From an uncultured bacterium (lineage in GTDB: Bacteria; Bdellovibrionota; JACOXK01; 2-02-FULL-40-11), in NCBI GenBank assembly GCA_964392415.1, contig CAYMPL010000002.1, positions 12 to 64,011 of the forward strand: a DNA stretch of 64,000 nt, in the 5' to 3' direction. The notes beneath the pieces are model-generated. The model saw nothing but the letters and a program-made list of their open reading frames with translations. It had not been told where the DNA came from and searched no databases. Below, piece after piece: positions 30,905 through 30,973 of the stretch. The number at the start of each line of letters is the position of its first letter. Within the stretch, counting starts at the first letter, position 1. The position numbers and the translations under genes were made by a program.

Positions 30905-30973
30905 GTCATCCTGAGCCCGAAGGGCGAAGGATCTTCGTCAGAGATTCCTCACGCTTCGCGTTCGGAATGACAT
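30905..30973. repeat. Inverted pair of hairpin repeats R2a (GTCATCCTGA GCCC GAA GGGC GAAGGATCT) and R2b (reverse orientation, GTCATTCCGA ACGC GAA GCGT GAGGAATCTC) in the ileS-lspA spacer
   Basis: Two family members in head-to-head orientation, read directly in the sequence. Confidence 0.8.

Follow-up and report, generated by a model that had tools for sequence, protein, structure and literature searches.

The DNA considered here is a 64-kb stretch from an uncultured bacterium, referred to throughout as the window, in which ileS (isoleucine--tRNA ligase) and lspA (signal peptidase II) follow one another on the minus strand across a spacer of 134 nt. An inverted-repeat search finds in that spacer, beginning 6 nt past the ileS TAA, two arms of 31 nt each (30904-30934 and 30942-30972) that are 74% complementary and 7 nt apart. 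Read as units of a repeat that starts with GTC and ends with C, the same DNA holds two 29-nt copies, units B and C, in opposite orientation and 9 nt apart; they meet body to body with their tags outside, the arrangement called HH in what follows (Table 1). A preliminary description had placed an inverted pair of repeat copies in the ileS-lspA spacer, which the repeat search and shuffled controls have borne out, and had given their distance as 5 nt: inverted and close they are, but the gap was drawn slightly short. It had also envisaged that the two copies could form a larger extended hairpin, and folding at both the RNA and the DNA level agrees.

On its own, unit C folds as single-stranded DNA into 5 bp, a GA·GA tandem, 4 bp and a GAA triloop (-6.0 kcal/mol). 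For the pair as single-stranded DNA the long hairpin comes to -14.0 or -14.2 kcal/mol as against about -12.3 kcal/mol for two local hairpins, while for the mRNA strand as RNA the inter-unit hairpin comes to -30.8 against -22.5 kcal/mol, with 23.7 inter-unit base pairs expected. In these predictions the long hairpin is thus about equal in stability to the two local ones as DNA and is clearly favoured as RNA.

Between the pair and lspA lies a promoter-like sequence, TTGAAT-18-TATACT, which ends 11 nt before the lspA ATG and is followed by no obvious Shine-Dalgarno sequence; it is invariant in five relatives while the bases around it vary. From its sequence and position, lspA probably has a promoter of its own, with the pair at the end of the ileS unit, and the lspA transcript may have a very short leader or none.

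The exact 159-aa LspA is recorded in Hainich groundwater assemblies, together with an identical spacer, and the next relatives among homologues are Oligoflexia and Bdellovibrio. One Hainich contig, the same as the window elsewhere over the part compared, carries TAG in place of an ileS TCG (L002, 160-170), which cuts the reading frame about 55 codons short; this is a strain variant or else a mistake in the assembly. The C-terminal tail of ileS is different in every relative compared.

Table 1. Positions, strands and particulars of the repeat units and neighbouring features in the window
Feature	Position	Strand	Particulars
ileS	30978..33764	-	NCBIfam TIGR00392, 983 bits; stop TAA 30978-30980
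lspA	30364..30843	-	NCBIfam; ATG at 30843
Promoter-like TTGAAT-18-TATACT	30855..30884	-	between pair and lspA
Whole HH heterodimer including tag bases (TGTC...GACA)	30904..30972		can form a single long imperfect hairpin
Unit B (GTCATCCTGAGCCCGAAGGGCGAAGGATC)	30905..30933	+	on the strand opposite the operon; tag TGTC; ssDNA hairpin -6.3 kcal/mol
Inter-unit spacer, 9 nt	30934..30942		between units B and C
Unit C (GTCATTCCGAACGCGAAGCGTGAGGAATC)	30943..30971	-	sense in ileS mRNA; GTC starts 6 nt after ileS stop; tag TGTC with the preceding base
Copy A	20752..20780	+	tag CGTC; 14 nt past acyl-CoA dehydrogenase stop; inside 5' end of ORF 20735..21604
Copy F	26889..26919	-	31 nt, 5-bp inner stem; between plsY and glnA
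Copy D	47875..47903	+	divergent intergenic region, nagZ-like gene / Met-zincin gene
Copy G	57221..57257	+	divergent copy, 37 nt, tag AGTC; divergent region between M48 peptidase gene and next gene
Copy E	60576..60604	-	directly after nadE
Partial tandem copy	60605..60626	-	first 22 nt of unit; gives last five codons (VILRA) and TAG stop of nadE
nadE (glutamine-dependent NAD synthetase)	60609..62270	-

Anatomy of the repeat unit and its copies in the window

The unit consists of a YGTC tag, a 5-bp stem beginning AT, a tandem G·A/A·G internal loop, a variable stem of 4-5 bp closed by a triloop, and then a C; in its 29-nt form it can be written out as GTC, ATYCY, GA, a 4-bp stem with a 3-nt loop, GA, RGRAT, C. 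What is fixed among copies is the internal loop, the GTC ahead of the stem and the C behind it. The two stems change in a paired manner (ATTCC/GGAAT against ATCCT/AGGAT in the outer stem, GGGC/GCCC against ACGC/GCGT in the inner), and this can be put in figures for 20 distinct 29-mers: 90% of cells are paired, both sides have changed in 35 cells as against 12.8 in shuffles, a count that 0 of 500 shuffles reach, and slid registers of the same 29-mers are only 19-44% paired. When folded as single-stranded DNA every unit gives the same hairpin, at -5.2 to -6.6 kcal/mol. Hairpins of this build are termed GA-type below.

Four copies in the window fit the unit pattern, with 0.00 expected from 100 dinucleotide shuffles, and looser structural scans bring the tally for the 64 kb to seven full copies and one partial. 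A scan on structure only, in which neither the GTC nor the 3' C was required, returned five window copies, and both features are there in all five. The tags of the window copies are TGTC (four), CGTC, GGTC and AGTC (one each), and an AT...AT start is common to all. Copy G has two G·A tandems, with a CCC/GGG stem between them.

Copy A lies within the 5' end of a PorV/PorQ-like ORF. The ATG of this ORF overlaps the stop codon of the gene upstream (ATGA), and the frame runs on through the repeat (MNTKWTSFRGRSPRNL...), so that the product has a basic N-terminal extension ahead of its hydrophobic signal-peptide core; the PorV/PorQ-like gene of one relative (L124) starts at an ATG for which the window has CTC at the same position.

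Several familiar classes were considered and set aside. A hammerhead-like reading of CUGA...GAA was rejected by eye, the core being without UGA and GAAA elements and many copies having CCGA; a CRISPR repeat, an attC or a dif-like site was rejected on anatomy, the copies being single, dispersed and without a GTTRRRY core. The whole window is without an Rfam match at gathering thresholds, and in E-value mode 30850-31000 yields only noise (mir-60, E 3.5). A search of the literature by the sequence string of the unit matched only primers and nothing relevant, and blastn of the consensus unit against annotated plasmids and phages gave few matches, with no annotated feature beneath them.

Turnover among relatives and spread over phyla

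The distances among four relatives are about equal (85.5-86.7% identity in ileS 3' DNA and 91-95% in lspA), with L127 as an outgroup at about 73-76%. Besides the window, L126 has the pair, in the same position, 6 nt after that genome's own ileS stop codon; the pair is absent from L125 and L127, whose spacers measure 65 and 33 nt, and the L124 sequence breaks at the pair site. A comparison of spacers in relatives had been proposed as a means of dating an insertion, and the outcome, a pair in L126 that is missing from two relatives with the same gene order, supports the earlier view that the pair is inserted DNA. The sense unit of L126 departs from that of the window at 5 of 29 positions, all of them in the inner 11 nt, and four of the five make up two compensatory pairs (A-T to G-C and G-C to A-T); no change is seen in the outer 18 nt, although the spacer alongside is about 14% diverged. 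The inner stem of the antisense unit is shorter by a symmetrical loss of 2 bp. Such a pattern points to selection or conversion that would keep the tag, the outer stem and the ability to form the hairpin.

Elsewhere, the copy at 20752 is absent at the orthologous site of L124, that at 26889 is absent in both L124 and L126, and 77 kb in total of relatives' loci hold only the L126 pair as against seven copies in the 64-kb window. Because of this presence and absence among relatives, and of the scarcity in their 77 kb, the units are, as judged from the loci compared, recent and dynamic in this lineage. No direct target-site duplication is visible at the flanks of the pair in the window or L126, and no clean empty site was definable at the three sites compared, the intergenic DNA being too diverged (that of L125 is not alignable). 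A fuzzy match inside the ileS of L130 (10715-10739) was dismissed as chance, for it codes native-looking IleRS and fails a stricter detector.

At the pair site L125 has something else (6230-6255), a different perfect hairpin, GCCATTTGCC-ATA-GGCAAATGGC, which overlaps its own ileS stop codon and whose right arm is conserved spacer sequence. The gene arrangement of the window does not hold throughout the clade: L128, L129 and L130 (72-78% LspA identity) have lspA on the other strand, converging on ileS. The preliminary description had spoken of a conserved operon junction; the closest relatives do retain ileS followed by lspA, but the three with convergent genes do not.

How far does such a hairpin extend beyond this lineage? 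A scan of GTDB species genomes with GTCATYCYGA-N(9-15)-GARGRATC returned at least 120 matching loci, with hosts among the matches listed in Chloroflexota, Acidobacteriota, Ignavibacteria, Omnitrophota, Rickettsiales, Clostridia, Melainabacteria and Helicobacter. By our own estimate composition alone would give about 2,000 random matches in the 596 Gb; that those found are non-random follows from inner segments, unconstrained by the pattern, that form stems and from the many loci with several copies. A detector that requires GTC, five outer pairs, GA...GA and the 3' C, and leaves the base before GTC free, finds 248 copies among the matches listed. That free base is a pyrimidine in 93% of them (TGTC 184, CGTC 46, GGTC 13, AGTC 5), the outer stem is ATYCY in 220, a figure partly imposed by the search pattern, and the tail is CTC in 107 and CCA in 10.

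Among the same listed matches, neighbours within 150 nt are HH (tag-outward) in 67 cases, HT (tandem) in 12 and TT (tag-inward) in 10. Dimer partners are almost always unlike each other, that is, heterodimers, and HH spacers over the phyla run from 2 to 110 nt with a median of about 25. By crude ORF calls, the unpaired copies among these matches lie between convergent genes in 20 cases, divergent in 7 and co-directional in 54. A Dehalococcoidia chromosome (L020, 6247-7141) carries seven identical GA-type units in an array of HH dimers with a period of about 330 bp, a clustered and tandemly amplified form of the repeat.

SsnA-like nuclease genes and the reading of the pair

A known protein pertinent to these hairpins is SsnA, a 94-aa single-domain GIY-YIG nuclease that binds the repeat NTS (CGTCATTCCCGCGMAVGCGGGAATCYRG, a longer form of dRS3) as single-stranded DNA and nicks it a few nucleotides upstream (Chenal et al., Nat Commun 2025, PMC11893778). 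Binding there depends above all on the C directly behind the palindrome and cleavage on the three bases ahead of it; recognition is sequence-specific, and neither RNA nor double-stranded DNA is a substrate. At least one Ssn-related motif (SRM) flanks 71% of ssn genes in that study, and 42% have them on both sides.

Among the pattern-selected matches listed, GIY-YIG genes (PF01541) occur within 200 nt of GA-type hairpins at three loci, L114, L122 and L092. In a reciprocal test, 80 metagenome loci were chosen solely by homology of the GIY-YIG protein, and these hold 173 GA-type hairpins as against 1.0 in shuffles. At least one is present in 46 of the 80, and flanking on both sides is seen in 33 (41%); within 400 nt an upstream copy is found in 41 loci and a downstream copy in 36. 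Upstream copies are mostly on the strand of the gene (+) and downstream copies mostly on the opposite one (-), and therefore the tags point outward around the GIY-YIG genes. With the demand for GA dropped, 179 hairpins of this build are counted in the 80 loci, and 146 of them still have GA/GA.

The GIY-YIG protein of L114 is 52% identical to a 94-aa gonococcal protein over 90 of its 94 residues (E 2e-32); the homologue criterion of Chenal et al. (PMC11893778) was a tblastn E<1e-10 over >75% of SsnA. The gonococcal protein has Y6, Y17 and E64 and sits among 16 NTS copies, and because those are the residues mutated by Chenal et al. (PMC11893778), and because of the NTS copies around it, it is identified as SsnA. 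Its source (L211, NZ_CP119140.1) is two 2.17-Mb Neisseria gonorrhoeae records that are labelled plasmid and yet are the size of a chromosome, and from which the 16 NTS were also taken. On protein homology and gene position, then, GA-type hairpins go together with true SsnA homologues and are a variant of the known system. Neither the 64-kb window nor the 77 kb from relatives (L124-L130) contains an ssn homologue. Metagenomes of the same aquifer do have Ssn homologues (L140 and L190, which need not belong to this organism), and that of L190 is flanked by GA-type hairpins.

The reading preferred here, to which a probability of about 0.7 can be given, is that the pair is an HH heterodimer of a dispersed hairpin repeat of the YGTC REP superfamily, a variant with a G·A loop of the Ssn-related NTS/SRM, and would act at the level of single-stranded DNA as a site of Ssn type. 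On an exposed strand the tag-bearing unit would fold into its hairpin and so present GTC 5' of the stem and a C on its 3' side, on which cleavage and binding by SsnA depend in Neisseria. By analogy, a cognate nuclease of Ssn type would bind the hairpin and nick a few nucleotides upstream, and an HH dimer would offer one such site per strand, the nicks falling, if the Neisseria geometry holds, outside the dimer on both sides. Because the hairpins that flank ssn genes are equally tag-outward, HH dimers look as though they derive from a hairpin-ssn-hairpin cassette without its gene; such an origin would account for their spread and turnover. Here the dimer would have inserted at the ileS 3' end, ahead of the probable lspA promoter, and the long RNA hairpin 6 nt after the ileS stop would be a side effect, with a possible influence on the decay of ileS mRNA or on translation termination. 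On this reading the pair is not a regulator built for ileS-lspA, and any effect on expression is secondary.

Could the pair instead be mainly an RNA element of the ileS-lspA transcript, whether attenuator, RNase III site or protection for the ileS 3' end? This is unlikely, though of the alternatives it fares best. The inter-unit hairpin, so strongly favoured in the mRNA and starting so near the stop codon, would suit it, as would the finding that among the matches listed 34 sense copies as against 10 antisense lie within 40 nt behind a stop codon. REPs of E. coli near stop codons or within operons affect mRNA decay and translation. Di Nocera et al. (BMC Genomics 2013, PMC3733652) argue, too, that many REPs are transcribed. 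Yet there is no U-tract after the hairpin, where the mRNA strand reads ACACAUGGC, and 0 terminator-like sites in 30300-31300, and two relatives with the same gene order (L125, L127) do without the pair. Other units are antisense between co-directional genes (26889) or lie in divergent regions (47875, 57221), the promoter-like site downstream of the pair is conserved, and the conserved GTC tag and 3' C are outside the helix and without a role in a simple RNA hairpin. As to strand, co-directional intergenic copies among the matches listed show a weak bias of 31 sense to 23 antisense; the idea of a strong bias relative to transcription was given up, the bias found being only modest, and it therefore does not decide between a function in RNA and one in DNA. 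The intra-operon attenuator or processing site first suggested for the pair is thus not upheld: there is no terminator, equally close relatives of the same gene order lack the pair, other copies stand in unrelated contexts and in both orientations, and a promoter-like site separates the pair from lspA.

Considerably less probable again is a REPIN or miniature transposon moved by a RAYT (an IS200/IS605-type Y1 transposase), with the arms as its ends. Inverted doublets, dispersal, presence and absence among relatives and siting at gene ends are typical of REP/REPIN systems, but the tag here is YGTC and not GTAG, the protein adjoining the hairpins is GIY-YIG and not Y1, and the arms of the dimers are mostly unlike, where a doublet replicating as a unit should have similar ones; REPs of CGTC type, moreover, are reported to be without RAYT association (Di Nocera et al., PMC3733652). 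The first suggestion of a miniature mobile element with terminal inverted repeats was close in spirit, except that each arm is itself a complete hairpin unit and the whole an HH dimer. A palindrome that arose by chance or locally, unrelated to other sequences, has the small size of the pair in its favour and is refuted by four to seven copies in the window against 0.00 in shuffles and by hundreds of related copies elsewhere, with covariation.

On the preferred reading, the feature is no longer a candidate attenuator of an operon but joins an established class of repeats that structure genomes. That class is also extended: the Ssn/SRM system, known since 2025 chiefly from Neisseria and further Pseudomonadati, seems to possess a widely distributed sister form with a hairpin interrupted by G·A in Chloroflexota, Acidobacteriota, Omnitrophota, Bdellovibrionota-like lineages and others, whose hairpins the published motif misses. 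A more tentative proposal, for which the odds are put somewhat short of even, is that GA-type hairpins are the cognate sites of a distinct Ssn specificity class, common in uncultured phyla and with the G·A tandem as its recognition feature, and that tag-outward dimers are non-autonomous, gene-less derivatives of the cassette. If so, GIY-YIG nucleases acting on single-stranded DNA would be the motor of a REPIN-like miniature mobile DNA. Tag-outward dimers are in 3:1 excess and are oriented as the hairpins at ssn flanks are, which provides a testable model of how the repeats multiply. Should cognate nucleases cut GA-type hairpins, they would bring new specificities to a family proposed as site-specific tools for single-stranded DNA. 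In the annotation of MAGs, GA-type units account for false N-terminal extensions, for stop codons borrowed from a repeat and for breaks between contigs.

Relation to known repeat systems

The superfamily of CGTC-tagged REPs, as described by Di Nocera et al. (PMC3733652), has an unpaired CGTC tag, often TGTC, stems whose first pairs are A-T and T-A, and a short unpaired tail, all of which recurs in the present unit; its members include dRS3 of Neisseria and RPE-4 and RPE-6 of Rickettsia. Its HH dimers, again with tags outside, predominate and are often heterodimers, TT being rare and HT negligible, and its repeats adjoin ORF 3' ends, mostly between unidirectional or convergent ORFs, and some supply stop codons or fall within ORF N-termini; the paper reports no transposase found for them and no RAYT association. 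The tag, the AT start of the stem, the predominance of HH heterodimers, the siting near 3' ends and the borrowed stop codons and N-termini are all found for GA-type units too. What is not shared is the stem, loop and tail: the families so described have a continuous stem of 8-9 bp, a 4-5-nt loop and a CCA tail, whereas the window unit has 5 bp, the G·A tandem and 2-5 bp more, a triloop and a tail that is mostly CTC. GA-type hairpins may already belong to one of those families, having been set apart here independently of the consensus sequences in Figure 2 of the paper.

NTS and SRM likewise have a YGTC tag 5' of a palindrome beginning ATTCC or ATCCT, with a C directly 3' and then a pyrimidine, and the outer stem ATTCC...GGAAT is common to window units and NTS; the determinants known from NTS, GTC ahead of the palindrome and C behind it, are in place in all five copies of the structure-only scan. 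Both kinds form hairpins as single-stranded DNA, are extragenic and of high copy number, and border genes whose products are single-domain GIY-YIG proteins of about 94 aa, on both sides in 41% of the GA-type loci here and in 42% of the loci of Chenal et al. (PMC11893778). This flanking of SsnA-homologue genes holds for the repeat family, at loci other than the window. The difference is that the GA-type stem is broken after 5 bp by the tandem G·A/A·G, with a short inner stem that is free to vary. Because that tandem interrupts the stem, the window copies fail the published SRM search motif, HGTCWYN(0-2)YYVSBRHN(0-5)WNVSBRGN(0-2)RNCYNB (PMC11893778), and by that motif they are not SRMs: there are 0 matches in the window and 0 among six window copies tested individually, and the motif finds one site in the 80 GA-type ssn loci as against nine around gonococcal ssnA. 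The hosts differ as well, being for GA-type hairpins mostly uncultured Chloroflexota, Acidobacteriota, Omnitrophota and others that Chenal et al. (PMC11893778) do not discuss.

With the GTAG REPs, BIMEs and REPINs of E. coli and Pseudomonas the present repeats share short extragenic hairpins, inverted doublets able to form one long hairpin, a domesticated nuclease gene, flanked by the repeats, whose product acts on single-stranded DNA, and a copy number that differs between strains; they part company in the tag (GTAG there, YGTC here), in the enzyme of the adjoining gene (HUH/Y1 there, GIY-YIG here) and in dimer arms that are here usually unlike. The subterminal hairpins of IS200/IS605 are likewise imperfect, single-stranded and read together with a short flank, with cleavage beside the hairpin; those, however, are the ends of an element that carries its transposase, both on the same strand, whereas GA-type units stand alone or as tag-outward partners on opposite strands.
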